Assembly (NCBI GenBank): GCA_964419495.1
Contig: CAYQQX010000008.1
Location: 163-64,162, forward strand
Direction of reading: 5' to 3'
DNA length: 64,000 bases
Source of the DNA: an uncultured Anaerolineales bacterium
GTDB lineage: Bacteria > Chloroflexota > Anaerolineae > Anaerolineales > UBA11858
Below are positions 43,108 through 62,428 of the stretch, one piece after another. The notes below the pieces were generated by a model. That model did not search any database. It saw only the letters and a program-made list of their open reading frames with translations, and was not told the origin of the DNA. Within the stretch, counting starts at the first letter, position 1. Each line of letters starts with the position of its first letter. The translations under genes and the position numbers were made by a program.

Positions 43108-43124
43108 ATTCAATAGTTTCCATC

Positions 43125-43166
43125 AAACAGGGTGGGGTGCGAAAGTGCTCCATCCTGTTTTCTTTA
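43125..43166 (+). terminator. rho-independent terminator after fhs
   Basis: AAACAGGGTGG..(14 nt)..CCATCCTGTTT followed by TTCTTT. Confidence 0.6.
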
Positions 43167-43327
43167 AGCCTCAGAGAGCTCAGAGTGCACTGAGTTATTC
43201 TTGCTGCACATTTGACCTTTGTTTCCTTTGGCGCATTTGTCCATCGTCTTTCTCCAAATCGATTATAATGAGACACGTTTTGTAGGAATTTATTGAATCC
43301 AATCCTATTGGTAGAGATGGAGCTCGG

Positions 43328-45067: not shown

Positions 45068-45872
45068 CCCTGGGGCTGTGCCCGCTGCCTGGCACGAATA
45101 TAAAAATGGTTGGTATCAAGCCGATGGAGAAGTCATCGAAGAGGCCTTGATCACCATTTATGTCAATGGCGCTGAGTTGGCTACCATTATGGCCTCGCCA
45201 CTCCAGCAAGATGTATTGGCTCTTGGTTTTATGAAGAACGAAGGCTTGATCGAAAGCCTTGCTGAAATAGAGATTCTTTTTGTGAGTAAATTGGGCTGCT
45301 GTGTGGATGTCTGGCTGAACAGGGAATTCGAGAAACCCAAGCGTGTGATCATCACCAGCGGCTGCGGGGGCGGCGTGACCTTCGACGACCCCAGGGTGGG
45401 TATTGAACCTGTTGAAAGTGAAATGCGTTTGGAGCCTGGCAAACTAAGGGAAGCATTTCGCCGACTTCAACCGCCCAACAGTCTGTATGCGCGCTCGCGC
45501 GGCGTACACGCGGCTGGTTTGTTTGATCCGCTAGACGATGAATTGGTAGCTATTGTTGAGGATGTTGGCCGTCACAACACCATTGATAAAATTTCTGGTA
45601 TCTGCTTACAAGAAGCTATTGATCCCAATGGTCGCGTGTTATTGGTCACAGGACGCATCTCCTCAGAGATGCTGCGCAAGGCGGCGGTGATGGGCTGCCC
45701 GATAATTGCATCTCGCACCTCTCCCACTTCAATTTCCATCGAGATTGCGCAAGCCTGGAATATCACTTTGATCGGTTATGTTCGGGCTGGGCGGATGCGG
45801 GTGTACAGTTGCCCGGAGCGTATCAAATCCCTGGAGATGGTTGAAGTTAATGATATTGGTATCACAGAATAG
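45054..45872 (+). CDS. fdhD: formate dehydrogenase accessory sulfurtransferase FdhD
   Basis: Motifs SGCGGGVTFDD, EDVGRHNTIDK, VTGRISSEMLRKAAVMGCPIIASRTSPTS. Confidence 0.85.
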   Translation: MDKHNPGAVPAAWHEYKNGWYQADGEVIEEALITIYVNGAELATIMASPLQQDVLALGFMKNEGLIESLAEIEILFVSKLGCCVDVWLNREFEKPKRVIITSGCGGGVTFDDPRVGIEPVESEMRLEPGKLREAFRRLQPPNSLYARSRGVHAAGLFDPLDDELVAIVEDVGRHNTIDKISGICLQEAIDPNGRVLLVTGRISSEMLRKAAVMGCPIIASRTSPTSISIEIAQAWNITLIGYVRAGRMRVYSCPERIKSLEMVEVNDIGITE

Positions 45873-45882
45873 AGAGAATCAT

Positions 45883-46593
45883 ATGTCTGAAGAGTACGTG
45901 CAGCTTACTATCGATGGCACTCCCATCAGCGTCCCTGCCGGGACAACGCTGTTGGATGCTGCCAAAGATGTTGATGTTGAAATCCCAGTAATTTGTTATT
46001 TTGCTCATACTACGGCAAATGGTTTGTGCCGTTTGTGCGTTGTTGAAGTCGAAGGTGCCCGTATGCTGCAGGCCGCCTGTGTAACGACAGTGCAAGAAGA
46101 TTCTGTTGTGCAAACGCGTTCTCCCAAAGTGGAGCGTGCCCGACGTACCATATTGGAAATGCTAGTTTCCACGGTGGATATCTCCGAAAGCCCCGAATTG
46201 CAGGAATTGGTTGTAGATTATCAATGTCTTCCCGAACGTTTCGATGGGGGTAAGAAGCGCGATCCAGCGATCATCGATGATAACCCGGTTTACCTGCGAG
46301 ATTACTCACAATGTGTGATGTGCTGGCGCTGCGAGCAGGTTTGCGCCGACGATGCCCAATTCACCTACGCCCTAAACTTCAGCGGCCGCGGCTTCGATAC
46401 ACAGATCGCAACTTTTTTCGATAAACCGCTCACTGAGACAACCTGTGTATTTTGCGGAAACTGTATTGGCGTCTGTCCCACGGGGGCGTTGAAAGCCAAA
46501 CGCGAGCATCTGATTGAGCAGGGCGTCGCGCCAGAGAAGGTGATGGAGTTTACGCGCTTGAAGGGGAAGAAGAAAAAGGAAAATTCAAAATAA
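45883..46593 (+). CDS. Fe-S domain protein corresponding to only the N-terminal third of an FdsA/NuoG-type formate dehydrogenase alpha subunit (likely truncated)
   Basis: 2Fe-2S fold ([28 protein letters not shown]) and ferredoxin-type clusters ([27 protein letters not shown]). It ends with a Lys-rich tail (GKKKKENSK) where intact homologues continue into T.C.YCGVGC. Confidence 0.7.
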
Positions 46594-46738
46594 GTAGAGT
46601 TGCACCCGAAACTGTCATGGCCACAGGCCCACCTTCGGTGTGAGCCACCGCCTTTGGAAAGTGGTGAAGAATCTCTGATCATCAGGTATTAGGGATGCTT
46701 CGCTGCACTCAGCATGACAATAAGTAAGTTTCGACCAA

Positions 46739-46780
46739 AAAATCCCCTGCTGATCTTATTCAACGAGGGGATTTTCGCTT
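46739..46780 (+). terminator. hairpin/terminator downstream of the truncated Fe-S gene
   Basis: AAAATCCCCT-(17 nt)-AGGGGATTTT, a 10-bp perfect stem with flanking A/T runs (could work in either direction). Confidence 0.5.
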
Positions 46781-46956
46781 AGTTTAACCGAATATGACCC
46801 TTCCCGAGCTGAAATGTGATTTTTGTTAGATTTGCGGATTTCACTAATGGGATAGAATTTAGTTCGATTACTCGGCCATAGCATCGCAGATTCATCGAAT
46901 TTGGCTGAGTAATTCCCTTTTCTCCACAGAATAAATGTTCAAATTAAGGAGAGATC

Positions 46957-47421
46957 ATGGAAGAAGCTTTGCAAAACATCTTTTCGAACTTCGAAGGGAA
47001 GCGTGAAGAGATCATCCCAATCTTGCAAAAGGTGCAGGAGAATTATACCTACCTGCCCGAAGACTCAATGCGGGAGATCGCCAGATTTACACGCGTTCCA
47101 GAGAGTGACATTTTTGGGGTAGCAACTTTTTACGCCCAATTTCGATTTGAGCCAACTGGACGCAATCACATATGTGTCTGCCGTGGGACGGCCTGCCACG
47201 TGCGGGGGGCACCCGCAATCTTGGAAGAAGTCACTGACAACGTCGGGCTCGAAGGTGAAGGCACAACCGAAGATTTAGAGTATACGGTTGAGACGGTAGC
47301 CTGCATCGGCTGTTGCGCCCTGGCTCCAGCGGTGACCTATAACGAAGAAGTTCACGGTAACCTGACGAAGAATAAGGTCCGCAAACTTTTGAAAGCGGAG
47401 GCTGGTAAAAATGGCAAATAA
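46957..47421 (+). CDS. NuoE/HndA-like 2Fe-2S subunit
   Basis: AAGGAGAG RBS. Thioredoxin-like 2Fe-2S pattern C.C.GTACHVRG...E..ACIGCCALAP. Confidence 0.85.
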   Translation: MEEALQNIFSNFEGKREEIIPILQKVQENYTYLPEDSMREIARFTRVPESDIFGVATFYAQFRFEPTGRNHICVCRGTACHVRGAPAILEEVTDNVGLEGEGTTEDLEYTVETVACIGCCALAPAVTYNEEVHGNLTKNKVRKLLKAEAGKNGK

Positions 47422-49222
47422 CAATTCCGTTCTCATTTGTCGGGGGACCGGGTGTGAATCGGCCAAATCGGGCGATATCCAGACTGAACTAGAAACAGGA
47501 CTGGACGACAGCGGGATCGAGGTCAAATTCACAGGCTGCCATGGCATGTGCCAGCAGGGTCCCATTGTGATCGTGGAACCCGAGGGCACTTTTTACGCCA
47601 ATGTGAAGCCCAAAGATGTTGAGCCCATTGTCGACTCACTGAAAAATGGCGGCGAACCGGTCGAAAAATTATTTTACAAAGACCCCTCCACCAAAGAAAA
47701 ACTCCCCACCTATCACGATATTCCCTTTTACTCTAAACAGAAGCGGCTGGTCTTGCAAAATTGTGGCAAGATCGACCCTGAAAATATCGACAATTACCTG
47801 GAAGTAGGCGGTTATGAAGCCCTAAAAACGGCCATATTTGATCTGACCCCGGAAGCCATCGTCCAATCAGTATTGGACTCAGGGCTGCGTGGGCGCGGTG
47901 GTGGCGGATTTCCAACCGGGCGCAAGTGGCAGTTTACCCAGGACGCCCCCGGCGACACCAAATACGTGCTTTGCAATGCCGATGAGGGTGATCCGGGAGC
48001 CTTCATGGATCGCTCAGTTTTGGAAGGTGATCCCCACGCTGTTTTGGAAGGTATGGCTATTGCGGGTTTTGCCATTGGTGCCAAGCAGGGCTATATCTAC
48101 TGCCGGGCTGAATACCCCCTGGCGATCAAGCGCTTGCAAATTGCCATTGATCAAGCCCGTGAAAAGGGCTTTCTTGGCAAAGGCATTATGGGTGGCGAAT
48201 TTGATTTCGATATTGAAATTTTCCACGGTGCGGGTGCGTTCGTGTGCGGCGAGGAAACTGCCTTGATCACCTCGATCGAGGGGAATCGCGGTATGCCCCG
48301 CAGCCGCCCACCTTATCCCGCAATCAAAGGGCTTTATGGCAAGCCCACACTGCTCAACAACGTCAAGACCTACGCCAACGTCCGCCTGATCATTAATAAT
48401 GGGGCCGACTGGTTTGCCAGCATTGGTACCGAAAAGTCCAAAGGGACGGCCGTATTTGCCCTGACGGGGAAGATCGCCAACAGCGGTCTGGTCGAAGTGC
48501 CGATGGGGATCACGCTGCGTGAGATCATTTACGATATTGGCGGCGGAATGTTGGACCCCAACAAGAAGTTCAAGGCCGTCCAGACCGGTGGCCCTTCGGG
48601 TGGTTGTTTACCCGAATCTTTCCTGGATACGCCCGTCGATTATGACTCGCTGATCGAAGCTGGTTCCATGATGGGCTCTGGCGGGATGGTTGTGATGGAC
48701 GAGGATACCTGCATGGTGGATGTGGCCCGCTACTTCCTGGATTTCACCGAAAAAGAATCCTGCGGTAAGTGTGTGCCTTGTCGTTTGGGTACCAAGCAAA
48801 TGCTCGACATCCTGGAAGACATCGTGGAAGGCCGTGGTAAACCCAGTGATATCGAACTCCTTGAAGATTTGGCTGTGGGCATCAAAGCCGGATCCCTGTG
48901 TGGCTTGGGCCAAACCGCCCCAAATCCGGTACTGACCACCCTGCGTTACTTCAGAGATGAGTATGAGGCCCATATCCATCACCATGCCTGTCCAGCCAAG
49001 CAATGCAAGGAGCTCATCACCTACCACATCTTGGAATCTTGTGTCGGTTGCGGGCTGTGTCGTAGGAGTTGCTCTACCAATGCCATCATCGGTGAACAAA
49101 AAGAGCTGCACTATATTGACCAATCGCTGTGTCACAAATGTGGCGTGTGTTTCGAAGTCTGCCCGCCGAAGGTTTTCTCTATTGAAATACGTACCGGCGA
49201 AGTGGAACTGGTGGAAGGCTAA
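47411..49222 (+). CDS. NuoF/HndC-like FMN/NAD(P)-binding subunit with extra N-terminal 2Fe-2S and C-terminal 2x[4Fe-4S] domains
   Basis: Motifs GRGGGGFPTGRKW, CNADEGDPGAFMDR, ESCGKCVPCRLG. C-terminal CVGCGLCRRSC and CHKCGVCFEVCP. Confidence 0.88.
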   Translation: MANNNSVLICRGTGCESAKSGDIQTELETGLDDSGIEVKFTGCHGMCQQGPIVIVEPEGTFYANVKPKDVEPIVDSLKNGGEPVEKLFYKDPSTKEKLPTYHDIPFYSKQKRLVLQNCGKIDPENIDNYLEVGGYEALKTAIFDLTPEAIVQSVLDSGLRGRGGGGFPTGRKWQFTQDAPGDTKYVLCNADEGDPGAFMDRSVLEGDPHAVLEGMAIAGFAIGAKQGYIYCRAEYPLAIKRLQIAIDQAREKGFLGKGIMGGEFDFDIEIFHGAGAFVCGEETALITSIEGNRGMPRSRPPYPAIKGLYGKPTLLNNVKTYANVRLIINNGADWFASIGTEKSKGTAVFALTGKIANSGLVEVPMGITLREIIYDIGGGMLDPNKKFKAVQTGGPSGGCLPESFLDTPVDYDSLIEAGSMMGSGGMVVMDEDTCMVDVARYFLDFTEKESCGKCVPCRLGTKQMLDILEDIVEGRGKPSDIELLEDLAVGIKAGSLCGLGQTAPNPVLTTLRYFRDEYEAHIHHHACPAKQCKELITYHILESCVGCGLCRRSCSTNAIIGEQKELHYIDQSLCHKCGVCFEVCPPKVFSIEIRTGEVELVEG

Positions 49223-49234
49223 AGGAACCGCCTT

Positions 49235-51916
49235 ATGACAAATCAAATCAAATTTACAATTGACGGACAGGAGATCGTTGCCCAGGATGGACAGAATATT
49301 CTCGACGCTGCGCTGGCCAATGATATTTATATTCCCCATCTATGCCACCACCCAGACTTGAAACCGGTGGGAGCATGCCGATTATGCGGTGTGGAAATCG
49401 ATGGCGGAAGCATGACCATGAGTTGCCTGGAACCAGCGCGAGAAGGGATCGATGTCAAGACCGACAGCCCGGTGATTTATCAATCCCGCAAGATCGCCAT
49501 GGAACTGCTCATCGCCGACCACCACATGGACTGCCTGGCCTGCGCCGCCGCCAATGACTGCGACCTGCTGACAGTTTCGGCCTATCTGGGCATTGATTCA
49601 GAACGGTTGGAACGGCTGCGCAAAACTGTACGTGATCTCCCCATCGACGCATCCAACCCCTTTTTCCAGTTTGATCCCAATAAGTGTGTGATCTGCGGCA
49701 TCTGCGTGCGGACCTGTGACGAAATTGTGGGACTGGGAGCATTAGGATTTATTGATCGCGGTGTTAGTACGACAGTTGGCACGTTTGGAAACAAACCCTT
49801 TGTTGAGTCGATATGTGAATCCTGTGGCGAGTGTGTTGTTCGATGCCCGGTGGGAGCCCTGGCTCCCAAGACACCCAAATTTGCCGCCCGCGAAGTACAG
49901 TCAACCTGCGTCTACTGTGGGGTGGGCTGCGGTATCTATCTGGGTGTGGTGGGTGACAAAGTTGTCAATGTGCGCGCTGACCGTGAGCGCCCGACCAATG
50001 AAGGCAGTCTATGCGTCAAAGGTCGCTACGGCTTCAACTTCGTCAACCATCCTGATCGACTGACCAAACCGCTGATCAAGAAAGACGGTAAGCTTGTAGA
50101 ATCTGAATGGGACGAAGCGCTTGAATTAATTGCCACCAAGTTTGCTGAGAGTAAAGGCGACAAATTTGCCGCTCTGGCAAGTGCCAAGTGCACCTTAGAA
50201 GAAAATTACCTGATCCAAAAATTTACCCGCGCAGTGATGGGGACGAACTCCGTCGACCACTGCGCCCGGCTTTGACACAGCCCTACTGTGGCCGGTCTGG
50301 TCACATCATTTGGCTCGGGCGCAATGACCAACTCCATTAAGGAGATTGATGGCGCAAAAACAATTTTCGTGATTGGGGCTAACACTACCAACGCTCACCC
50401 GGTGATTGGACACCGGATGCGGCGTGCGGCCCAAAACGGAGCCACTCTGCTGGTTGCCAATCCCAAAGAGATCGATCTGGCTCGTTCAGCTCATACCTTC
50501 ATTCAGCCAAAACCTGGCAGCGACACCGTCCTGCTGATGGGCATGTGCCGCTATATTCTCGAAGAAGGGTTGCAGGATCAAGCCTTCATGGACGAACATT
50601 GCGAGAATTTTGATGAGTTCAAGGCATCACTCGATGCCTTTACTCCAGAATTTGTGGAAGAAATTACCGGTGTACCATGGGAACAGGTTGCCAAGGTGGC
50701 GCACACCTACGCTACCAATAAACCGGCTTCTTTGTTCTACGCCATGGGGATTACCCAACACACTCATGGTACCGACAATGTGATGGCAGTTGCCAACCTG
50801 GCAATGATAACCGGCAATATTGGCAAAGAGTCCACCGGAGTGAATCCGCTGCGCGGCCAGAACAACGTGCAGGGCGCCTGCGACATGGGGGGATTGCCCA
50901 ATGTCTATCCTGGCTACCAGAACGTCACACTCCCCGAAAACAAGGCCAAGTTTGAAAAGGCCTGGGGTGTGGAACTCTCCGATGAAATTGGCCTGACCCA
51001 TACCGAAATTTTCGATGCCATTTATGATGGCAAAGTTACGGCTCTGTACATGGTTGGGGAAAACCCGCTTCTGACTGAGGCCAATGCCAAACATGTTCGC
51101 GAAGCCATCGAAAATCCCGACCTGTTTTTCGTGGCCCAGGATATTTTCCTTTCGGAAACGGCTGAACTCGCAGATGTGGTGCTGCCTGCAGCCTCCTTCG
51201 CGGAAAAGGATGGAACCAACACCAACACCGAACGCCGCGTCCAGCGGGTTCGCAAAGCGATCCCACCGCGGGGGGATTCCAAACCCGATTGGTGGATCAC
51301 CAGCCAGATCGCTCAAAAGATGGGCGAGCCTGGCTTTGATTTCTCAGAACCTTCGGAAATCATGGACGAGATCGCTTCAGTGACCCCCATTTATGGCGGA
51401 ATCTCTTACGAACGCATCGAAGAAGTCGGCTTGCAGTGGCCCTGCCGCGATGAGAGCGACCCAGGGACGCAGTACCTGCACAAGGGTAAATTTGCCCGCC
51501 CCAACGGTAAGGGCCAGTTCGTCCCCTTGGAATACAAGAAATCAGCCGAAATCGCAGATGCTGAATACCCATTGATCCTCACAACCGACCGCAGTCTGTA
51601 TCATTATCACTCTGCGACAATGACCCGGCGCGTAGCTGGCTTAGAAGAGTTGGACAGCAATGAGTGGCTGAAACTCAGCCCGGCAGATGCAGAACAGTTC
51701 GGTATCGAAGATGGTGAGTGGGTCGAGGTATATTCGCGACGAGGGAAAATCAAAGTTCGCGCCCAGGTCACGGATGTCTGTCCCTCGGGCGTCTGCTCAA
51801 TGACCTTCCACTTCCACGAAAGCCCCACCAACGAGATCACCAATCCCGCATTGGATCCTGTGGCAAAGATTCCTGAAACTAAGGTCACTGCTGTTCGAGT
51901 GGAAAAAGTGTCATAA
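49235..51916 (+). CDS. fdhA: selenocysteine-containing formate dehydrogenase alpha subunit (893 aa, U at codon 347)
   Basis: Track ORFs 49235..50275 and 50288..51916 share a frame and are separated only by TGA 50273-50275. Reading through gives [34 protein letters not shown], which matches E. coli FdhF VDCCARV-U-HGPSVAGL..GNGAMSN. N-terminal Fe-S domains and TCVYCGVGCG are present. Confidence 0.88.
50288..50304 (+). promoter_or_regulatory. SECIS-like hairpin for fdhA
   Basis: GUGGCC-GGUCU-GGUCAC starts 13 nt after the UGA. The GGUCU apical loop is the same as in the E. coli fdhF SECIS as I recall it. Confidence 0.65.
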
Positions 51917-51950
51917 ATAACTGAGGGGTGTGCATAATCAATCGAATACT

Positions 51951-51982
51951 GATGAGTCCACGCGTTTTTTAGTGGACTCATC
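51951..51982 (+). terminator. 11-bp perfect hairpin after fdhA (possible terminator or attenuator)
   Basis: GATGAGTCCAC-gcgtttttta-GTGGACTCATC. The T-run is in the loop, not after the stem, so terminator function is uncertain. Confidence 0.4.
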
Positions 51983-52142
51983 GATGGTTAAATATGGTAC
52001 CAAAGAGAAAATAGGGGAGTTTATTGAAAAAGGGTGAAATTGCGTTTCAAGCGAGATTGAGTCTACTTGTAGCTTTATCGATGATCATCAGCACTCTCTT
52101 GATGTGAAAATAATCACGAATGGTACAGTTGTCCTTTTAGTT

Positions 52143-52158
52143 TGTGATATTTGTCACA
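52143..52158. promoter_or_regulatory. CRP/FNR-family consensus site TGTGA-N6-TCACA upstream of hdrA
   Basis: tgtga-tatttg-tcaca is perfect in both half-sites. It lies about 155 nt upstream of the hdrA start, in a 396-bp AT-rich leader. Confidence 0.4.
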
Positions 52159-52312
52159 TGTCATATTGGTTGAAATCCGTCAATATTACTGTTATTCACA
52201 TCATTATAGCTCACCGTAGATTCTATGAACCTCACTAAGTAATAATCGGCTTGTTTGCAGGTTGAAAGAACCAATCTAGGGGAGCTCACATCTTCATGGG
52301 AGGTTGGTTTTC

Positions 52313-54340
52313 ATGGAAGCTCAAAATCCCTTCATGGGAGTACATGGCTCGCATCAACAGCAGGAAGTTCGAGTGGGTGTCTATGTATGTCGTTGTGGAA
52401 CCAACATTGGGGGTATTGTAGATGTTGAACAAGTTGTAGATTTTGTTTCCAATTTACCTTGTGTGGCAGTTGCGCGAGAATATTCCTATATGTGTTCCGA
52501 TCCTGGTCAGGGAATGATAAAAGGGGATATCGAAGCACATGACCTTAACCGCGTAGTGGTGGCATCTTGTTCACCAATGATGCATGAAAGCACATTCAAA
52601 ACCGCCTGTTCAGAAGCTGGAATAAATCCATTTTTCTTCCAAATGACCAATATCCGAGAGCATGTCTCCTGGGTGCATTCTTCTGATCCTGTGTTAGCAA
52701 CCAAAAAGGCAAAAGATCTTGTATATGCTGCTGTCAATCGTGTTATTGAACATTTGCCTTTGGAAGAACGCCAATCGGATGTGAAGCAATCTGCATTAGT
52801 AGTTGGGGCTGGAATAGCCGGAATTGAGGCTGCATTACGAATTGCAGATTCAGGGAAGAAAGTTTACCTGGTAGAGAAGCAATCTGGGATAGGTGGGCAT
52901 ATGGCAAGATTATATAAAACCTTCCCAACGTTAGATTGTGCGGCTTGAATACTCACACCCAAAATGGTGTCCGTGGGACGCCACAAAAACATCACACTGC
53001 TTACTTACAGCGAAGTAGAGAGTGTCTCTGGGGTCGTGGGTAATTTCAAAGCAAAAATTCGTAAAAAGGCGAAATATGTAAATAGAGAATTATGCAATGG
53101 CTGCGGTACCTGTGTTGAAAAATGTCCGTGGAAAAATATACCGGACGAATTTGAATATGGTCTTAGCAACAGACCTGCTATTCACTTTCATTACAGCCAG
53201 GCTGTGCCCAAAATACCCGTTATTGATAAAGAGCATTGCGCATATTTCAAGAATGGAAAATGTAAAGCCTGCGAAAAATTTTGTCAGAGGGATGCTATAG
53301 ATTTTGAGCAAACTGATGAAATTATTGAAATTGACGTTGGTACCATAGTTTTAGCTACCGGTTTCAAAGATTTTGATCCCTCTGAATCCCCTCATTATGG
53401 CTATGGTACTTATGGAAATATATTGACTAGCAGAGAATTTGAACGCCTGATCAATACCAGCGGACCAACTTTAGGTGAGGTGCATCTCTCCAATGGAGAT
53501 AAACCAAAGCGGGTTGCGATTATTCATTGTGTTGGTAGTCGCGGGGATAAGAATCAATACTGTTCGCGAGCTTGCTGTATGTATTCGTTAAAACTGGCTC
53601 ACCTGGTCAGGTCTGTGATTGGAGCTGAGGTGGTTGAGTTTTACCGTGATATGCGCGCTTTTGGTAAAGAGTATGAATCTTTTTATGAGAAGGTGAGAGA
53701 AGAACAGGTTGAGTTTGTACGCTACGACAGAGATATTCAGGTTTCCAAGGTTGAAAACCAGCTAACCGTTGAAACTCAAAATTTATTTACAGGTGAAAAC
53801 CAAGCTGAGAAGGTAGACATGGTGATTCTCAGTACAGGCTTTGAACCACAAACCGATCAAAAGACGGTCGCCAGCACATTTGGAGTAAGCCTTAGCCCAG
53901 ATGGTTTTTTCCAGGAAAAACACCCCAAATTAGCCCCAGTTGAAACAGCAACAGATGGTGTATTCCTGGCGGGAGCATGCCAAGGTCCAAAGGACATCCC
54001 GGATTCAGTGGCCCATGGAAGTGCGGCCGCGGCGGCTGCTCTGGCTTTGATGGATGCTGGATCTGTAACCTTAGAACCCTACACCGCTTATATTGATCCT
54101 GAAAAATGCAGTGGCTGCCTGATATGTGCCAATAATTGCCCTTATCATGCAATTGATGTGGTTACCTCCAATGGCCACAAAGTATCTCAAATTAATGAGA
54201 TCTCTTGCAAAGGGTGTGGAACATGCGTGGCCGCTTGCCCAGCTGGCGTTGCCAGACAGCATGGCTTTACAAACGACCAGATCATCGCTGAAATTGAAGG
54301 TTTACTCAAGATGGGACTTGTTGAGGAGACAATGGTATGA
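52313..54340 (+). CDS. hdrA: selenocysteine-containing HdrA-family flavoprotein (675 aa, U at codon 212)
   Basis: Track ORFs 52304..52948 and 52964..54340 are in one frame, separated by TGA 52946-52948. Read-through gives KTFPTLDCAA-U-ILTPKMVSVGRHKN, the conserved HdrA motif where Cys homologues have C. It has the N-terminal VGVYVCRCGTNIGG, FAD fold ALVVGAGIAGIEAAL and ferredoxin domains. Confidence 0.85.
52965..52983 (+). promoter_or_regulatory. SECIS-like hairpin for hdrA
   Basis: UGGUGUCC-GUG-GGACGCCA, an 8-bp stem including one G-U pair, starts 17 nt after the UGA. It lies in a 59-nt block identical to the hdrL copy. Confidence 0.55.
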
Positions 54341-57300
54341 ATCGATCAAAACCTCGCATTGGTGCATATATCTGCCGTTGTGGTACCAATATAGCGGATA
54401 CGGTAGATGTTGAAGAGGTGGTTGCCGACACCAAGAAATTAAAGAATGTTGTACTGGCGCGCGAATATAGCTACATGTGCTCAGATCCAGGTCAGGATTT
54501 GATCAAAGAAGATATAAAAAAACATAAACTGAATCGGGTGGTGGTTGCATCCTGTTCACCCTTGATGCATGAATTTACTTTTAGAAAAGCATTGGAAGCA
54601 GGCGGGCTAAATCCATTTTATTTTCAGATGGCGAACATCCGCGAACAATGCTCCTGGGTGATAAACGACCAGAAAATGGCGACGAAGAAAGCCCAAAAAA
54701 TGGTGGATGCTGCCGTACGGCGCGTGTATTATCATCAACCATTAGATCCCCGTTCAGTTGAAATGGCATCCAGTGTGATGGTGGTAGGAGGTGGGATTGC
54801 TGGGATTGAAGCTTCCCTAAAGATTGCAGATGCAGGAAAGAAGGTTTATCTAGTCGAGCGGGAATCAGCTATTGGCGGACATATGGCCCAGCTTTACAAA
54901 ACCTTCCCGACTCTCGATTGTGCGGCTTGAATACTCACACCCAAAATGGTGTCCGTGGGACGCCACAAAAACATTGAACTGCTAACATTCAGTGAAGTTG
55001 AATCTGTTTCTGGATATGTAGGAAATTACCAAGTTAAGGTTCGCCAAAAACCCCGATATGTTCATGAGGATCTCTGCACAGGCTGCGGCCAATGCGCTGA
55101 AGTTTGTCCGGTGAATGTTCAAAATGCTTTTGAATTAGGTTTAAACCACCGCAAAGCGATCTTCAGGAATTCCGATCAGGCCACACCAAATGCTTTTGTC
55201 GTTGATAAACGCGGTGTTGCTCCTTGCAGAGATGCTTGTCCGGCGGATCAGCGAGCGATGGGCTATATTTCCTTGGTCAGGCAAAAGCGTTACGCAGATG
55301 CCTACTGGGCCATCCGGCGGGAGAACCCATTCCCTTCAGTGTGCGGTCGAGTGTGCAACCGAAAATGTGAAGATGAATGCAGCCGGAGTGATTATGATGA
55401 ACCCGTAAACATTATGGCCATTAAAAGATTTGTTGCCGATTGGGCCTATGACCATAGGGATGAATTGGCCTCAATGGAAGACAAATCGCGTGTAGGTACA
55501 CCTTTTGAAAAGGAACCCCAACCCACTGGGAAACGGATTGCCATTATTGGTGCTGGACCGGCTGGGCTGACTGCCGCATTAGATTTGGTTCGGTTGGGGC
55601 ACAGTGTAAAGGTTTTCGATAGCTTCTCCCAAGCAGGGGGGATGATACGTGTAGGGATTCCACCGCACCGGTTACCTTACGAGAGGTTGGAATGGGAGAT
55701 CGAACAGATCAAGGCAGAAGGGGTTGAGATTCAACTCAATACAAGAATAGATGATATTCCTGCTTTGCTTCAAGAAGGATATGAGTCGGTTTTGATCGCA
55801 ACTGGAGTGCATGATGCTATCAAACTGCCAATCCGTAATTCTAATCACCCAGATAACTGGTTGAGTGTCGATTTCCTCCGCAGAGTATTTTTGGGAGAAG
55901 AAATTAACCTCTCCGGGAGGAAGGTGATTGTCTTAGGTGCCGGGGATGTTGCTTTGGATGTTGCCCGCACCGCAATTCGCCTGGGAAAACCTAAGGTAAA
56001 AATTGTTTGCCGCGGTATGCGAGCTTCGGAACATGAAATCAAAGCTGCCAAGGAAGAAGGCGTTGAAATTGTACCCAGCAGAGTATTCAAAAAAGTGGTG
56101 GCGAACAAGAAAAGGATCAAAGGCATCGAGTGCTTGAAAGCTGAAGTAGGGGGGATTGTCGATGGCCGTCGAATTGTACAAGAAATGCCGGGTACTGAAC
56201 ATGTGATCAAGGGTGACATTGTGATTTGGGCTTTGGGCCAACAGCCAGATTACTCGTTTTTACCTTGGGAAGGCAGCATTAATACGCAGTATCCCAAAGG
56301 AATTCTGGCGGATGAAAATTTGATGACAACACACCCAGGTGTATTTGTAGCTGGAGATGCCAGACAAGGTGCAACCTCATTTGTCGTAGACGCAATTGGT
56401 GAAGGACATCATGTAGCTCGATGTATTGACCGATATTTGCGAGGAGAAGAAGGGATACCTGAACCACAATTGCACGAAGAAGTTGCCCGACTTGAGCCTG
56501 ATGAAATTGAGCAAAAGATATCCCAAGGCATTGTTACAGAAAAACCAAGGCAAACTACAAAATCCATACCACCCATAGAGCGGGAAAATAATTTCAATGA
56601 GGTTGATCTTGCTTTCTCTGAAGTGGAAGCATTGACTGAGGCTTCTAGGTGCCTTGAATGCGGCGTATGCGCAGAATGCCTTGAATGTGTTTCGGCTTGT
56701 GAAAAAGGGGCTGTTGATCAGGAAATGAGAGACAAGGTAGAAGATTATACGGTTGGTGCGATTATCCTGGCAACTGGCTTTAAAGATTTTGACGCTAAGA
56801 AAGCGCCAGAATATGGAGCAGACTTGCCAGATGTGATAACTGCCTTGGAATTTGAACGCTTAATCAACCCAAGTGGTCCAACCAAGGGTCAGGTCTTAAC
56901 CAGTAAAGGGAAACCGCCAAAACGAGTTGCGATCTTACATTGTGTCGGCAGCAGGAACGAAAAATACCATAAGTATTGCTCAAGGGCTTGTTGTATGTAT
57001 TCCTTGAAATTGGCACAACTTGTCCATGAATATGTGGATGCAGAAGTGTTTGAAATTTATCGCGATATGCGGACATTTGGTAAGGGTTATGAAGAGTTTT
57101 ATAATCGAGTGTCCGATGAGGGTGTGAATTTCTATCACGGTTTGGTTAACAATGTTAGTCAGCAGAATGGGAATTTGTTAGTACAGTGGGACGAGAATTT
57201 TTATGACGAACCAGATTCTGTAGAAGCGGATATGGTGATCTTGGCGACTGGTTTTGAGCCACAAGATGATACGGCAAAAGTTGCCAGTATTTTTGGGGTC

Positions 57301-57714
57301 AGTCGCAGCCCTGATGGATTTTTCTTAGAAAAACATCCAAAGCTGGGTCCAGTTGAAACCTCTACCGATGGGATATTTCTGGCCGGAGCCTGCCAAAGCC
57401 CTAAAGATATCCCCGATAGTGTTGCTCAAGCAGGAGCTACTGCGGCAGCAGCCTTATCTTTGATTGACCAGGGCAATGTTTTGCTAGACCCATCTGTTGC
57501 AAGGGTGACAGCCAGCATTTGTGCTGGTTGTGGGCAATGTGTTTCTGCCTGTCCATATGAAGCTGTCGCACTAAATGAAAATGTAGCGAGTGTGAATCCG
57601 TACCAGTGTAAAGGATGTGGCACCTGTGCGGCAACATGCCCAAACAAAGCTATGAGCTTAATTCATTATGAAGATGAACATCTGATTGCTGAGTTAGATG
57701 CTTTATTGAGGTAG
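54337..57714 (+). CDS. hdrL: selenocysteine-containing HdrL-type large HdrA homologue with an inserted GltD/NfnB-like NAD(P)H module (1125 aa, U at codon 198)
   Basis: Track ORFs 54337..54930 and 54946..57714 are in one frame, separated by TGA 54928-54930 (KTFPTLDCAA-U-ILTPKMVSVGRHKN). The insert has NPFPSVCGRVCNRKCEDEC, IAIIGAGPAGLTAALDL, VLGAGDVALDVART and VFVAGDA. The HdrA sequence resumes afterwards (ILHCVGSR, CSRACCMYSLK, C-terminal ferredoxins). Its start overlaps the hdrA stop (ATGA). Confidence 0.82.
54947..54965 (+). promoter_or_regulatory. SECIS-like hairpin for hdrL
   Basis: The sequence is the same as 52965-52983. Confidence 0.55.
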
Positions 57715-57724
57715 GAGCTGAATT

Positions 57725-58186
57725 GTGTTTGAACCAAAAATTATTGCATTTCTATGTACCTGGTGTAGCTATACGGGTGCTGATCTGGCAGGGACATCTC
57801 GCAAGGCTTCTCCCTGGAATATTCGCGCAATCCGGACACCATGTTCAGGACGCGTTCCCCCTGAACTGGTCATTCGGGCATTTGATGAAGGTGCAGATGG
57901 GGTGATTGTATTAGGATGCCATATTGGTGAATGTCATTATGATACTGGCAACCATCGTACTGCAAAAAGGATACCTGTGCTAAAGAATTTATTATCTTTC
58001 GTAGGCTTAGAACCAGAGCGCTTACGTTTGGACTGGGTTTCCGCTTCGGAAGGGGATCGTTTTTCCAGGATAGTTACCGAATTCACTGATACTATCCGTG
58101 AATTGGGGGCTAACAATTGGGGTGATGCCTACCGAGATGAATTTTATGCTGCTTTGGTTGGCGAGGTATTTGAGCAGGAGGTCTAA
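57725..58186 (+). CDS. flxD: MvhD/FlxD-type [2Fe-2S] protein (methyl-viologen-reducing hydrogenase delta subunit family)
   Basis: Motifs IIAFLCTWCSYTGADLAG, IRTPCSGRV, GADGVIVLGCHIGECHY. GTG start with AGGAG upstream. Confidence 0.85.
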   Translation: MFEPKIIAFLCTWCSYTGADLAGTSRKASPWNIRAIRTPCSGRVPPELVIRAFDEGADGVIVLGCHIGECHYDTGNHRTAKRIPVLKNLLSFVGLEPERLRLDWVSASEGDRFSRIVTEFTDTIRELGANNWGDAYRDEFYAALVGEVFEQEV

Positions 58187-58190
58187 TTAT

Positions 58191-59039
58191 ATGAGCATAG
58201 ATTTGCTTCAAGAACACGCAAACAACATCATCTCTTCCGGACAGGTTGACTGCATAATTGGATATGAAGTAGGTCCACGTCAATGGACGAGGCCAGCGTT
58301 CATTTATGAGCCTGATGAAGTGAGGAAATTGGTGTGGAATCAAAATTGTACACATAATCTTACCACCTACTTGCCTTCAAAATTATCTGAAGAAAAAGAG
58401 CGGGTTGCTGTCGTATTAAAGCCGTGTGACGCAAAATCGGTTAATATGCTTTTGGCCGAAAATAAGATCGTTCGCCAACAAGTTCATATCATTGGGATGG
58501 TATGTAATGGGATGTTAGATGATGACGGGGGAAAACAGAGTCGCTGCATAGCGTGCAGTCAGCAAAAACCGAATGTCTATGATTTTCTAATTGGTGATTT
58601 AGATACAGAGGCAATTGATTCTACGAGCTTGAATGGAAACAAGTTTTTGGCGGAGATCGAAGAGTTGCTTCCTCCAGAGCGGGCTGAATTTTGGATAGAA
58701 CAATTCGATCGCTGTATCCGATGTTATGCCTGCCGCCAGGTATGCCCTTTATGTAATTGCCCCACTTGTCTGTATGAACGTGATGATTCTTTGTGGGTTG
58801 GAATGAAAACTGGAATAAAAGAAAAAAGGGCCTTTCATCTTGGACGAGCGATGCACCTGGCTGGTCGTTGTGTGGGGTGCAATGAGTGTGAGAGAGTTTG
58901 TCCAATGGAAATACCCATCAGCTTATTAAACCAAACCCTGGCAAAAGAGCTCCAGGCTCAATTCGATTATATTGCTGGAAATGAAGTGTTGCTCTCTCCA
59001 ATTATTGGGCCCACCCTTGAAAAGGAACAAAAAGCATGA
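58191..59039 (+). CDS. Fe-S protein, FlxC-like (2x CxxCxxCxxxCP-type clusters)
   Basis: Start MSIDLLQEH (58191) with GGAGG upstream. Clusters CIRCYACRQVCPLCNC and CVGCNECERVCP. It sits after the MvhD-like gene, as in flxDCBA. Confidence 0.7.
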   Translation: MSIDLLQEHANNIISSGQVDCIIGYEVGPRQWTRPAFIYEPDEVRKLVWNQNCTHNLTTYLPSKLSEEKERVAVVLKPCDAKSVNMLLAENKIVRQQVHIIGMVCNGMLDDDGGKQSRCIACSQQKPNVYDFLIGDLDTEAIDSTSLNGNKFLAEIEELLPPERAEFWIEQFDRCIRCYACRQVCPLCNCPTCLYERDDSLWVGMKTGIKEKRAFHLGRAMHLAGRCVGCNECERVCPMEIPISLLNQTLAKELQAQFDYIAGNEVLLSPIIGPTLEKEQKA

Positions 59040-60037
59040 AATTCATATCAAGTCATGAGTTAATCGCTTTGTTGCAGAATATATTGAATGAGCAGATTTT
59101 ATATGCCCCTGTGTTGGTTGGGGGAGTGGAGCTATATCAAGAGATAGAGCATGTGGAGGATATTTTCTGGAACTTCACACGTCCGGGTAAATCTGTGAAA
59201 GAGGTGGTTTTTCCACAGACCGAAACATTGATGGTTATAAAAGAGAGCGACAAAAATTTAACGGTTCATGAAAATATTTCAAACGAGAAAACCGTTATTT
59301 TTGGGGTGCGACCTTGTGATGCTCGTGGGATGCAAGCACTAGATTCAATGTTCTTCCATACAGATCCTATTGATAGTTACTACGCTGCGCGAAGGAATAA
59401 TTCAGTATTGATTGGGCTGTCTTGTTCTGAAATGTTGGATACATGTTTTTGCACAAGCATGGGAGGCATGCCTGATGATCCGAGTTGTATGGATATTATG
59501 CTGACAGTGGTTGATGATGGCTATCTGGTCGAGGTTATGAGTGATGCCGGGGCAAATTTGCTAGATGGTATAGAGTTGAGCGATAAGGCTATAGACAAAC
59601 CAAAACCGCCCATTCAAAGCGTGGTTGAAGTTCCAGAAGTTGAAAACATTCAAAACATTTTTGCTTCAAAATTATGGATGCAGGAAGGCGAGCGGTGTTT
59701 AAGTTGTCGAATATGTGCCTATGTTTGTCCTACCTGTCGTTGTTTTGATATTCAGGATGAGAACCTTTCTTCCGCGAATGGCAAAAACCAGAGCATCAGG
59801 TTGCGGTGTTGGGATAGCTGTAGTAGCCATGCATATAGACAGATTGCTGGAGGACATAATCCCAGAGAGATTAAGGCCGACCGACTTCGCAACCGAATTT
59901 TGTGTAAGTTGAAATATTATGCAGAGCAATACGGCCCGCAAGCATGTACCGGGTGTGGGCGATGTATCTCTGCTTGCCCGGTTAATATTGATATCACAGA
60001 GATAATGGGGGCTTTAATGGAAGTGGAGGCAATATGA
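59036..60037 (+). CDS. Fe-S protein, FlxB/AsrA/sulfhydrogenase-beta-like
   Basis: Motifs GVRPCDARG, CFCTSMG, CLSCRICAYVCPTCRCFD, CTGCGRCISACP. Confidence 0.75.
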   Translation: MKFISSHELIALLQNILNEQILYAPVLVGGVELYQEIEHVEDIFWNFTRPGKSVKEVVFPQTETLMVIKESDKNLTVHENISNEKTVIFGVRPCDARGMQALDSMFFHTDPIDSYYAARRNNSVLIGLSCSEMLDTCFCTSMGGMPDDPSCMDIMLTVVDDGYLVEVMSDAGANLLDGIELSDKAIDKPKPPIQSVVEVPEVENIQNIFASKLWMQEGERCLSCRICAYVCPTCRCFDIQDENLSSANGKNQSIRLRCWDSCSSHAYRQIAGGHNPREIKADRLRNRILCKLKYYAEQYGPQACTGCGRCISACPVNIDITEIMGALMEVEAI

Positions 60038-60879
60038 TCCAGAGACCAGGGAATGACTCATTGCAACCATTGATAGGGAAATTAGTTCAAGTTCAAGACC
60101 TTGCACCGGAAATTAAAATGTTTGGTGTTGAATTGGAAAATGGTGCTGGTCAACATTTTAAGAATTACGAGCCCGGACAGTTTGCATTCATCTCTGCCTT
60201 TGGGACCGGTGAGGCTCCTTTTGGAATCGCATCGACTTCTGATCGAGGAAATATCCTTGAATTTGCTGTTCAACGTTTAGGATCAGTTACAACTGCCTTG
60301 CATGAAATGTCTGAAGGTGACCACGTTGGTATCCGAGGGCCCTTAGGAAATGCTTTCCCGATGACAATGTTTGAAGGTAAAGACCTTCTGGTAATTGGTG
60401 GCGGTATTGGGGCTGCTCCATTACGCCCAGTGATCCATTCGGTGCTGGATAATCAAGAAAAATATGGAGAATTGAATATTCTGATGGCTGCCAGAGACCC
60501 TTCTCTGCATGTCTTTCATGATGAATATGAATCATGGCAGGAGAGCAATAACACCAATTTGCATCTCATAGTGGATCAGGCTGATGATAACTGGGAACAT
60601 GATGAAGGCTTGATTACAGAATTGATCCAAAAGGTTGCTCCATCTGCTAAAGACACTGTGGCAATTGTTTGTGGTCCACCAATCATGATTTACTACGTTA
60701 GCAAGTTGCTGAATGAGATTGGATTTATTGGAGGGCAGCAGTATGTTACTCTGGAAGCAAGGATGCATTGTGGGATAGGCAAATGTGGCAGATGTAACAT
60801 AGACAAAACATTGATTTGCGTCGACGGTCCTGTTTTTTCTATGGATCAAGTGGATGCTTTTTCAGAGAGTTATTTATAA
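60034..60879 (+). CDS. FAD/NAD(P)-binding subunit with a C-terminal 2Fe-2S, FlxA/AsrB/PyrK-like
   Basis: Ferredoxin-reductase fold (GQFAFISAFG, LLVIGGGIGAAPLRP) and the terminal cluster MHCGIGKCGRCN. Confidence 0.8.
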   Translation: MIQRPGNDSLQPLIGKLVQVQDLAPEIKMFGVELENGAGQHFKNYEPGQFAFISAFGTGEAPFGIASTSDRGNILEFAVQRLGSVTTALHEMSEGDHVGIRGPLGNAFPMTMFEGKDLLVIGGGIGAAPLRPVIHSVLDNQEKYGELNILMAARDPSLHVFHDEYESWQESNNTNLHLIVDQADDNWEHDEGLITELIQKVAPSAKDTVAIVCGPPIMIYYVSKLLNEIGFIGGQQYVTLEARMHCGIGKCGRCNIDKTLICVDGPVFSMDQVDAFSESYL

Positions 60880-60904
60880 CACGAAAAATATGAGGAAATT
60901 TTCT

Positions 60905-61366
60905 ATGGTCTATAAACCCTGGACTCAATACCAAGCCGCAAAAAGGATTAAAGAGGCTTCTATTTATAATCGCCCCTGGTTGGTTTTAGAAAAGTTGGGG
61001 CTTACTGAAATACCGCAAGAAGTGTTTGAGTTGACTCACTTGGAAGAATTAATTGTCATTGATAATCTTTTGTCTTCAGTGCCTTCCGAAGTAGTTGAGT
61101 TACCTAATCTTTCTCGGCTAATTTTTTTCTATAATGAAATCACCGAGTTGCCCCCTGAAATTGGCAGCTTAACAAATTTGACTCATCTAGACATTAGCTG
61201 CAACCAGCTCGAGAGGTTGCCTTTAGAAATAAAAGATCTAAGAAAATTAAAATACCTTGATCTTCGTTACAATTCACTACCAATTCCTGAGGAAATACTG
61301 GAAAAAGTAGATGAACCACAATTGATCATTAGCGCATATTTTGAACTAATTGAACTCGTTGTATAA
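60905..61366 (+). CDS. leucine-rich repeat protein (153 aa)
   Basis: LxxLxLxxNxL repeats (LTHLEELIVIDNLLSSVPSEV, LPNLSRLIFFYNEITELPPEI, LTNLTHLDISCNQLERLPLEI, LRKLKYLDLRYNSL). The ATG at 60905 has GAGGA 7 nt upstream. Confidence 0.65.
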   Translation: MVYKPWTQYQAAKRIKEASIYNRPWLVLEKLGLTEIPQEVFELTHLEELIVIDNLLSSVPSEVVELPNLSRLIFFYNEITELPPEIGSLTNLTHLDISCNQLERLPLEIKDLRKLKYLDLRYNSLPIPEEILEKVDEPQLIISAYFELIELVV

Positions 61367-61989: not shown

Positions 61990-62275
61990 GGCTGAGTTGA
62001 TAAATAGTCTATAACAGCAACGAATGCCTCAAACTCAGCCCGGAGAATGCGGAGCAGTTTGGCATTGAAGATAGCAAATGGGTTGAAGTCTACTCTCGCC
62101 GCGGTAAGATCAAAGTGGGCGCCCAGGATACATATAGCTGTCCTTCGGGGGTCTGCTCGATGACCTTCCACTACCACGAAAGCCCTACCAACGAGATCAC
62201 CAAACCGGCACTAGATCCCGTAGCCAAGATCCCGAAACTAAAGTCACTGGGGTAAGAGTGGACAAGATGGAATAA
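61990..62275 (+). pseudogene. 3'-terminal remnant of a formate dehydrogenase alpha-subunit gene (about the last 90 codons, frameshifted)
   Basis: It aligns by eye to 51655-51916: LKLSPENAEQFGIEDSKWVEVYSRRGKIKV.AQ....CPSGVCSMTFHYHESPTNEITKPALDPVAKIP against LKLSPADAEQFGIEDGEWVEVYSRRGKIKVRAQVTDVCPSGVCSMTFHFHESPTNEITNPALDPVAKIPE. There is a 1-nt deletion at gatccc-gaaact, no upstream ORF and no start codon. Confidence 0.8.
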
Positions 62276-62428
62276 TACTTATAGAAAATCATTAGATACC
62301 CTGATAAGGAGTATAGTGATTTTTGTTGAAACTTTAGCTCCATATTATGTTTTAATTCGGTATAATCAAATTGTTATTGACAGCAGATACCAATGAGAAT
62401 TTATGATTTTTTAAAAAAGAGGTAGATC

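Follow-up and report, generated by a model that had tools for sequence, protein, structure and literature searches.

Whether a formate dehydrogenase and a set of HdrA-type flavoproteins whose genes lie side by side also work as one enzyme is the question raised by a block of nine genes (46957-60879) from an uncultured Anaerolineales bacterium, situated in a 64-kb stretch of contig CAYQQX010000008.1 (the window). This block was originally predicted to encode a single formate-linked electron-bifurcating complex. Examination of related loci revealed instead two modules: a formate dehydrogenase (FDH) unit and a widespread Hdr-Flx unit, the latter carried on ~10.4 kb that are absent from the same site in sister populations. 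We regard it as rather probable that these are two independent redox modules, placed side by side in this species only, and that Hdr-Flx is most likely a self-contained Nfn-like system without a need for HdrBC.

Gene calls, derived from the list of open reading frames (ORFs) and read-through translations, reproduced nine co-oriented genes in 14 kb:

46957-47421, + strand, nuoE, HydC-like [2Fe-2S] subunit of the FDH module
47411-49222, + strand, nuoF, HydB-type FMN/NAD(P)H subunit
49235-51916, + strand, fdhA, selenocysteine (Sec) FDH catalytic subunit, in-frame TGA at 50273-50275
52313-54340, + strand, hdrA, 675 residues, Sec TGA at 52946-52948 within a CAAU motif
54337-57714, + strand, hdrL, 1125 residues, Sec TGA at 54928-54930
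57725-58186, + strand, flxD/mvhD, [2Fe-2S] adaptor, Cys form
58191-59039, + strand, flxC-like, Fe-S protein with a truncated FdhB-like scaffold
59036-60037, + strand, flxB-like, Fe-S protein of the AsrA/sulfhydrogenase-beta type
60034-60879, + strand, flxA-like, FAD/NAD(P)H/[2Fe-2S] protein of the AsrB/sulfhydrogenase-gamma/PyrK/NfnA type

The junctions from nuoE to flxA, when recomputed, comprise in order an 11-nt overlap, a 12-nt gap, a 396-nt gap, a 4-nt overlap, a 10-nt gap, a 4-nt gap and two 4-nt overlaps, which agrees with the original description of tight junctions with a single exception before hdrA, all other gaps being at most 12 nt. The gene identities proposed at the outset (NuoE, NuoF, Sec-FDH, HdrA, HdrL, MvhD/FlxD, two Fe-S proteins and an AsrB/FlxA-like protein) are all nine backed by domain models from Pfam and NCBIfam, and the domain content likewise bears out the presence of two bifurcation-type flavoprotein modules and three NAD(P)-binding modules.

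The hdr-flx genes form an autonomous operon

The genes hdrA-hdrL-flxD-flxC-flxB-flxA constitute an autonomous six-gene operon with no constant neighbour, since their order is invariant and their flanks are unrelated in six long contigs (L001-L003 and L021-L023) and in 80 metagenome loci. In the six long contigs, hdrA and hdrL are followed by mvhD and flxC, usually fused, and then by flxB and flxA, with unrelated housekeeping genes on either side. The 80 further loci, obtained from metagenome contigs by a scan with an FlxC alignment, each exhibit the same order as far as the contig reaches (tblastn). Altogether ~85 hdr-flx loci were available. The start of hdrA is spanned by 26 metagenome loci, 19 of which extend at least 1.3 kb and 15 at least 2.7 kb upstream, and the end of flxA by 55, including 31 with at least 3 kb downstream. 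Neither the 19 loci that reach at least 1.3 kb beyond hdrA nor the 31 that reach at least 3 kb beyond flxA contain a homologue of nuoE, nuoF or fdhA, and the sole molybdoenzyme match near any hdr-flx locus was a 22%-identical gene 4 kb downstream in L092. The families that recur in the flanks are non-redox, namely an InhA-like MAM protease, a cupin, an ABC transporter and an HI0933-like flavoprotein.

Identity of the operon proteins across lineages amounts to 45-79%, and all relatives that carry a taxon name belong to Chloroflexota/Anaerolineae. The closest HdrL homologues, 66-80% identical, stem from metagenome-assembled genomes (MAGs) of Anaerolineales/Anaerolineae and from many metagenomes; a search of genome contigs with HdrL as query returned one relevant MAG (L004/L005) and 15 irrelevant GltD-like loci from Oscillospiraceae. 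Variants of the operon were also observed. The order hdrA-hdrL-hdrL accounts for 5 of 26 loci and was seen in L023, L036, L068, L073, L084 and L089, and hdrL-flxDCBA without hdrA occurs in L092 (5997-12715). In the Chloroflexota MAG109, a divergent cluster (L004 1084-9406, minus strand) adjoins hdrA-hdrL and encodes giant HdrA/HdrL-like fusions of 1065 and 1542 residues, which recall the fused HdrA dimer BamE, together with two mvhD copies.

An empty site in one sister lineage

The nuoE-nuoF-fdhA(Sec) unit is present in three sister lineages, with FdhA 87-91% identical and no hdr or flx genes alongside. Downstream of fdhA these lineages carry:

L110/L111, FdhA 91% identical, MOSC and metallophosphatase genes
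L112, FdhA 88% identical, a sulfatase gene
L113/L114, FdhA 87% identical, a gene for a cyclic nucleotide (cNMP)-binding protein

L113 is colinear with window positions 40512-51909, from folD to the end of fdhA, and continues directly with the orthologue of a cNMP-binding protein that lies beyond the hdr-flx operon in the window, its positions 11874-12339 matching 62415-62880 at 77%. The region from 51.9 to 62.4 kb is missing from L113, which thus represents an empty site. The features that delimit this region are:

51654-51907, + strand, left copy of a direct repeat (last ~253 nt of fdhA), blastn 79% against 62014-62266
60854-61366, + strand, leucine-rich repeat (LRR) protein (Pfam), far-end cargo kept with the block in L104-L106
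61374-61880, - strand, cNMP-binding-domain protein, 168 residues (Pfam), far-end cargo kept with the block in L104-L106
62014-62266, + strand, right copy of the direct repeat, a decayed fdhA 3'-end pseudo-copy with a 1-nt deletion, tblastn 82% to FdhA residues 807-883, blastn 79% over 253 nt
62429-62881, + strand, cNMP-binding protein, 150 residues (Pfam), host-side flank, directly after fdhA in L113 and L114

The bracketed block, consisting of the hdr-flx operon with the LRR and cNMP genes, is ~10.4 kb long, and the fdhA 3' end is present on both sides of it as a direct repeat of 253 nt. Exactly at the junction, G+C content at third codon positions (GC3) falls from 0.53-0.68 (folD to fdhA) to 0.35-0.41 (hdrA to the LRR gene). 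The last 26 nt of flxA overlap with the LRR gene (170 residues, GC 0.355), which accompanies the block in relatives, and no helix-turn-helix domain was detected in the 168- and 150-residue cNMP-binding proteins.

A proposal of one formate-linked complex is not sustained by these data. The hdr-flx operon stands alone in ~85 loci and the FDH unit alone in three sister lineages, and the empty site in L113, the direct repeat and the conserved palindrome in the 396-nt leader described below all speak against it. The gene-neighbourhood survey, which the original prediction had itself put forward as a check, makes the window a rearranged exception as regards FDH-Hdr adjacency, in spirit the kind of outcome that was named there as contrary to a shared complex.

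Behaviour of the ~10.4-kb block as a discrete unit is evident from two contigs, L104 and L105, that are 88% identical to it at the nucleotide level and carry a permuted junction, flxA-LRR-cNMP(-)-[fdhA 3' fragment]-leader-hdrA. Taken together, L104 (1-10034) and L105 (1-7258) close a unit of ~10.43 kb on itself at 99.5-100% identity, which indicates that it is tandemly repeated or circular in these populations; L105 derives from the same sample as the empty-site contig L113. Upstream of a position within hdrL, a further contig, L107, differs from L104 (81%), hinting at two versions of that region. The block may have originated by Campbell-type integration of a circular fragment, or by duplication with subsequent loss. 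All pairs of the fdhA-3' repeat are 73-85% identical, except for the identical L104 and L105 fragments, and host and element copies are not separable on this basis. Classification as a classical integrative element was considered and dropped, there being no recombinase gene in the block (Pfam). In the closest sister lineage (FdhA 91%), a gene of the PDDEXK_3 nuclease family is inserted between nuoF and fdhA (L110 8269-8655), another sign of a recombinationally active locus.

The hdrA leader

The 396 nt that separate fdhA from hdrA contain:

51950-51983, + strand, 12-bp hairpin, 34 nt after the fdhA stop, -22.9 kcal/mol, z = -2.75, no T-tail
52103-52118, Crp/Fnr-type palindrome TGTGAAAATAATCACG, one mismatch
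52143-52158, Crp/Fnr-type perfect palindrome TGTGATATTTGTCACA

The perfect TGTGA-N6-TCACA at 52143-52158 is the only perfect site in the 64 kb, and the leader palindrome is conserved in the alignment with L104. When up to two mismatches are allowed, the palindrome is found upstream of hdrA in all 24 relatives as compared to 14.7% of 761 control windows, and with at most one mismatch in 12 of the 24 as compared to 1.7% of the controls. Because of this family-wide occurrence in the hdrA leader, the hdr-flx operon is probably regulated on its own through a putative Crp/Fnr-type operator. The hairpin after fdhA could be a terminator or an RNA-stabilising element and is given little weight, since a scan for canonical terminators did not call it and such sites were no commoner than in shuffled controls. 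As regards riboswitches or other known RNAs in the leaders, an Rfam search at E <= 1 over 39.5-62.5 kb returned the selenocysteine insertion sequence (SECIS) of fdhA only.

HdrA, HdrL and selenocysteine

HdrA is recognized by NCBIfam HdrA-family models (E 1e-238), and its residues 15-665 align with residues 8-653 of the HdrA chain 8rvu_a in the Protein Data Bank (PDB; E 4.5e-208), a full-length match that takes in the N-terminal, TrxR-like FAD, inserted-ferredoxin and C-terminal ferredoxin domains. HdrL consists of two HdrA portions (residues 1 to ~290 and ~770-1125, of which 5-292 and 770-1124 match HdrA 5odc_A), split by an insertion of ~480 residues that resembles NfnB/GltD and would carry FAD/NAD(P)H sites and 2x[4Fe-4S]. 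This insertion is located in the inserted-ferredoxin domain, contains Pfam domains Fer4_20 (295-373) and Pyr_redox_2 (400-690) and matches, over residues ~290-785, the NfnB/StnC-type chains 9bov_A, 8oh5_C, 5jca_L (E 9e-61) and 4ylf_B, while NCBIfam NF009410 scores 458 bits, under its cut-off of 516. The description of the 1125-residue protein as an HdrL with a GltD/NfnB-like module was thus correct, and mvhD (flxD) begins 10 nt 3' of hdrL, which agrees with the definition of HdrL (Strittmatter et al. 2009; PMC2702500). HdrA and HdrL are 52-63% identical to each other and both are kept in nearly every related locus; they are old paralogues, whose joint retention fits a heterodimer.

The in-frame TGA codons of fdhA, hdrA and hdrL are assigned to selenocysteine, as they were from the beginning, because of a SECIS match in fdhA, hairpins in hdrA and hdrL, alternation of Sec and Cys codons in relatives, and a position that corresponds to a known selenocysteine. 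The fdhA element was identified by Rfam SECIS_3 at 50270-50328 (E 2.9e-6, below the gathering score), and its TGA is kept in six relatives. Both HdrA and HdrL contain the motif FPTLDCAA-U-ILTPKM, with a hairpin 19 nt downstream of the TGA, and across relatives this codon is TGA in 67 cases and TGC in 5, with Cys variants in L001 and L002. In the HdrA of M. maripaludis, Sec197 forms a Cys-Sec (CxxU) pair near the FAD (PMC13518236), and the codon of HdrA and HdrL in the window is at the same position. From the TGA onwards, hdrA (52946-52992) and hdrL (54928-54974) share an identical 47-nt stretch, which includes the SECIS-like hairpin GGUGUCC-GUG-GGACGCC.

Proteins of this architecture have precedents. 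The HdrL proteins of D. autotrophicum HRM2 and S. fumaroxidans are likewise fusions of HdrA with a protein like the glutamate synthase small subunit, often selenoproteins and followed by mvhD, with FdhB-like Fe-S genes in several loci and a tandem hdrL/hdrA pair in one locus of D. autotrophicum (PMC2702500, PMC5947623). However, these loci have dsrABC, fdhAB or hdrABC (S. fumaroxidans Sfum_0819-0824) as linked genes, whereas HdrL in the window is partnered by the sulfhydrogenase-beta/gamma-like FlxB and FlxA and has no linked hdrBC. HdrA9-11 of ANME-1 archaea exhibit an NfnB-like insertion of ~500 residues at the same position in the inserted ferredoxin domain, giving two flavin sites, and proposals for ANME archaea include both a heterodimer of HdrA paralogues and a fusion of HdrA with NfnB (PMC9012536). 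They differ in being archaeal, in their hdrABC/fdhAB gene context and in that no Flx-type module is described for them.

The Flx subunits

Based on domain content, the Flx subunit set is present, that is, an FAD/NAD(P)H protein, two Fe-S proteins and an MvhD-like protein; no Flx-specific model is among the NCBIfam hits to the block proteins. FlxD, of 153 residues, consists of the FlpD (MvhD) domain alone (PF02662, E 6.2e-50). In most relatives FlxD and FlxC are one fused polypeptide, which argues for a direct contact between them. A profile built from the FlxC alignment (A1) matches FdhB of Fdh-Hdr supercomplexes (8rvu_E, 9t1s_M and 7bkb_E, E 3e-26) in two segments, a 'KPCD' segment and the C-terminal 2x[4Fe-4S] domain, and the matched part of FdhB sits beside MvhD in these structures. 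FlxC as an F420- or flavin-binding protein of the FdhB/FrhB kind was rejected, as the flavin domain of ~140 residues between the two aligned segments is missing. FlxB (PF17179) and FlxA (Pfam NAD_binding_1 and DHODB_Fe-S_bind) correspond to the beta and gamma subunits of P. furiosus sulfhydrogenase I (9nez_B, E 1e-44, and 9nez_C, E 1.7e-48), a pair that constitutes the NAD(P)H module of that hydrogenase. FlxA also matches NfnA (4ylf_A, E 1.7e-17), FlxB falls below the cut-offs of TIGR02910 and NF040833, and FlxB and FlxC are weak paralogues with 24% identity.

According to Ramos et al. 2015, as cited in PMC6687939 and PMC7382037, FlxABCD-HdrABC of Desulfovibrio vulgaris comprises the same subunit types beside hdrA, with a proposed role in NADH-driven bifurcation at HdrA. 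The locus in the window does not show the flxABCD-hdrABC type of clustering: hdrA and hdrL are present without hdrB and hdrC, the order is reversed (hdrA-hdrL-flxDCBA), the second HdrA paralogue bears an NfnB-like module, FlxD and FlxC are often one polypeptide and the host is a member of Chloroflexota, this comparison being one of descriptions and not of sequences. With the FdhAB-MvhD-HdrABC complexes of methanogens (PDB 7bkb, 8rvu, 9t1s), homologous HdrA, MvhD and FdhB-like elements and the Sec197-type Cys-Sec pair are shared; the differences are the loss of the FdhB flavin/F420 domain in FlxC, an FDH that is NuoG-fused and NuoEF-dependent, and the lack of linked HdrBC. As compared to NfnAB (PDB 4ylf, 5jca), the insertion of HdrL is NfnB-like, FlxA is of the NfnA/PyrK type and both systems have two nucleotide sites and ferredoxin-type clusters. 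However, the Nfn-like parts are found on separate subunits with FlxB, FlxC, FlxD and two HdrA-type flavoproteins between them, and FlxA is much nearer to sulfhydrogenase gamma.

A putative bifurcating-type formate dehydrogenase

The FDH unit looks like a three-subunit cytoplasmic bifurcating formate dehydrogenase of the HydABC/'Bfu' type, a known kind, because NuoF matches HydB over its full length and FdhA matches FdhF and FdsA. NuoE was identified by PF01257 (2Fe-2S_thioredx, E 1.5e-47) and by NCBIfam NF005722 (147 bits, cut-off 141). NuoF comprises the Complex1_51K and NADH_4Fe-4S domains with an extra N-terminal 2Fe-2S domain and a C-terminal 2x[4Fe-4S] ferredoxin domain (Pfam); its residues 6-585 align full length with HydB of the bifurcating enzymes 7t2r_B and 7q4v_B (E 2e-246), and counterparts in Stn and NfnABC are matched as well. 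In contrast, beta subunits of non-bifurcating FDHs are matched over the core only (E 1e-111 to 1e-123; FdsB 6vw7_B, E 7e-123). FdhA (TIGR01591, 837 bits, cut-off 666) begins with a NuoG-like N-terminus (Fer2_4, NADH-G_4Fe-4S_3), followed by Molybdop_Fe4S4, Molybdopterin and Molydop_binding domains, in agreement with a Mo/W-bis-PGD catalytic subunit that has a Sec/Cys ligand, and its structural matches are FdhF of HDCR (7qv7_S) and R. capsulatus FdsA (6tg9_A). With the HydABC/'Bfu' enzymes (PDB 7q4v, 7t2r, 8oh5, 9n5u) the FDH unit shares the HydB-type NuoF with both extra cluster domains, the HydC-type NuoE and a catalytic subunit to which a NuoG-like domain is fused; it differs as a three-subunit form whose FdhA bears its own NuoG-like N-terminus and which is known here from sequence. 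This module (46957-51916) would couple formate/CO2 to NAD(P)+ and ferredoxin, a function that fits the folD-fhs-fdhD context. An NAD+/ferredoxin-dependent formate dehydrogenase, FdhF2-HylABC, was reportedly described by Wang and colleagues in 2013.

Proposed function of the Hdr-Flx module

Homologous complexes of solved structure, together with the gene fusions, allow a wiring to be proposed for the Hdr-Flx module. Oxidation of NAD(P)H would take place at FlxA (FAD, 2Fe-2S); two Fe-S proteins, FlxB and then FlxC, would hand the electrons on to FlxD with its MvhD-type [2Fe-2S], and FlxD would deliver them to an HdrA/HdrL heterodimer, at its bifurcating FAD and Cys-Sec pair. Ferredoxin domains would provide the exit of the low-potential branch, and the NfnB-like FAD/NAD(P)H module of HdrL a second pyridine-nucleotide site. 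Since conservation is confined to two NAD(P)(H) sites and exits of the ferredoxin type, with nothing else conserved around the operon, HdrA-HdrL-FlxDCBA most likely works on its own, without HdrBC, as an Nfn-like oxidoreductase that bifurcates or confurcates between NADH, NADPH and ferredoxin. A precedent is the Stn transhydrogenase, which joins an NfnB-like module to another bifurcation module (PMC10482914). Going further, Hdr-Flx could represent a third architectural class of flavin-based bifurcating NADH/NADPH/ferredoxin oxidoreductases, an HdrBC-free 'Hdr-type Nfn' with an HdrA/HdrL core, widespread in anaerobic Chloroflexota and riding on a recombinationally active ~10.4-kb unit that landed at the 3' end of an FDH gene, a proposal that we put forward tentatively and hold to be possible but doubtful.

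HdrL, Flx-Hdr and HdrA-NfnB fusions are already described. For the six-gene operon without linked hdrBC as a conserved Chloroflexota unit, and for the way in which close relatives carry, lack or amplify it as a discrete unit, no description was found in the literature searched, two key reviews lying outside it. HdrA-type bifurcation is known almost wholly through HdrABC, and a conserved, selenium-dependent HdrA module, abundant among Chloroflexota of the environment and never seen linked to hdrBC, would allow one to ask directly about other targets of bifurcation. With six genes the operon is small and self-contained, hence suited to heterologous expression, with NADH/NADPH/ferredoxin coupling as the prediction. 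The locus also documents an operon of core energy metabolism that behaves as a discrete unit, which some close relatives possess, others lack and others again have amplified; and it is a caution for genome mining, as co-orientation and proximity of redox genes here reflect an insertion/deletion difference from sister populations and not a shared complex.

Several points weigh against this reading of two separate modules with an Nfn-like function for one of them. The function would follow from domain content and from the lack of any partner that is conserved. In five samples, contigs whose FdhA is 100% identical have the same arrangement fdhA-396 nt-hdrA, which favours some link between FDH and Hdr; the adjacency is stable within the species, not beyond. 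The fdhA fragment in the block may mean that an FDH neighbourhood existed also at its source, and read-through transcription from fdhA into hdrA is possible, the hairpin lacking a T-tail. As for the high-potential acceptor, even for complexes that have been characterised, hdrBC often lies apart from hdrA (PMC6085437), such that a distant HdrBC, HdrD or DsrC-type acceptor has to be considered, and four loci carry, 4-5 kb downstream and on either strand, a gene for a NarI-like + Fer4 + 2xCCG fusion of ~640 residues (HdrED/DsrMK-like), which could be an occasional membrane-bound acceptor:

L030, 9841-11745
L036, 16926-18842
L037, 9976-11910
L099, 16680-18644

The strongest alternative builds on the latter points and regards Hdr-Flx as a canonical Flx-Hdr enzyme whose high-potential acceptor is encoded elsewhere, be it HdrBC, a fused HdrD/BamD-like protein, the membrane NarI-CCG protein or a DsrC-like carrier, in which case NAD(P)H would reduce ferredoxin together with a disulfide, or with quinone via the membrane protein. 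Besides the frequent separation of hdrBC from hdrA and the four downstream NarI+Fer4+2xCCG genes, it is favoured by the hdrABC-mvhD-metVF clusters that marine Chloroflexi carry elsewhere (PMC5736913) and by the S. fumaroxidans HdrL-MvhD-FeS genes that adjoin hdrABC (PMC5947623). Against it, a six-frame motif scan revealed no CCG-domain ORF (hdrB, hdrC or hdrD) in any real gene of the 64-kb window, and a CCG gene is near the operon in only 4 of the 31 loci with at least 3 kb downstream, on either strand, and in none upstream, hence not consistently linked; moreover, the NfnB-like insertion of HdrL already represents a second nucleotide-binding redox module that could be the other branch. On balance this alternative is quite possible, although less likely than a self-contained complex. 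The lack of hdrB and hdrC, stressed as distinguishing in the original prediction, holds for the window and is weaker as a distinction than it sounds, given how often hdrBC is unlinked (PMC6085437).

A second alternative retains all nine proteins as one formate-driven supercomplex, in which a HydBC-type and an HdrA-type module would supply the methyl branch of the Wood-Ljungdahl pathway with NAD(P)H and ferredoxin. The genes are indeed adjacent and co-oriented, with the junction kept by contigs of this species in five samples, a piece of an fdhA 3' end is part of the inserted block, and FlxC is similar to FdhB, the methanogen protein that links FdhA with MvhD. Coupling of both module types by an MvhD-like adaptor also has a precedent in class II benzoyl-CoA reductase (BCRII, BamBCDEFGHI; bioRxiv preprint 10.64898/2026.04.10.717634), the only characterised wiring of a HydBC-type module (BamGHI) through an MvhD-like BamF to an HdrA-type BamE. 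However, the HdrD-like BamD and the tungsten enzyme BamBC are encoded with the other Bam proteins in a single conserved cluster, whereas the modules of the window are not co-conserved, have an ordinary MvhD adaptor and lack an HdrD-like subunit at the locus. FlxD is a standard MvhD of 153 residues that is fused to FlxC in relatives and not an extended BamF-like adaptor, FdhA is of the NuoG-fused type and not of the FdhAB type that binds FdhB, and this FDH already has a complete NuoE/HydB acceptor module. Together with the lack of co-occurrence in ~85 hdr-flx loci and three sister FDH loci, the relative with an empty site, the direct repeats, the drop in GC3 where the two modules meet, and the separate conserved operator-like palindrome in the leader, this makes the supercomplex very improbable. 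That the block is a recently acquired, non-functional or decaying passenger, as its low GC3, insertion-like boundaries and pseudogene fragment at one end might suggest, is hardly credible, with all six reading frames intact, Sec codons that keep their SECIS-like hairpins, frames preserved at 88% nucleotide identity to the block in relatives, and an operon conserved across many lineages at 45-79% protein identity.

Gene neighbourhood

Among the other large ORFs of the window, Pfam identified parts of a Tad pilus, CoA transferases, an ADP-forming acyl-CoA synthetase and similar functions, and none encoding hdrBC, metFV or acs. Upstream of the FDH unit lies a one-carbon/formate context (40236-46593, + strand; Pfam), whose order is the same in the sister contig L113 and in which the folD and fhs genes noted originally were located:

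40236-41126, + strand, folD (Pfam)
41179-43107, + strand, fhs (Pfam)
43328-45067, + strand, fused nuoE-nuoF (Pfam)
45054-45872, + strand, fdhD (Pfam)
45778-46593, + strand, HoxU/NuoG-N-terminal-like Fe-S protein (Pfam)

The last three genes (43328-46593) comprise a second NAD(P)H module, made up of a fused NuoE-NuoF of 579 residues without the C-terminal ferredoxin domain, FdhD and the HoxU/NuoG-N-terminal-like protein of 271 residues. This module, which may be an alternative, non-bifurcating partner of FdhA, is without a catalytic subunit of its own, and its arrangement is kept in L113 and L115.

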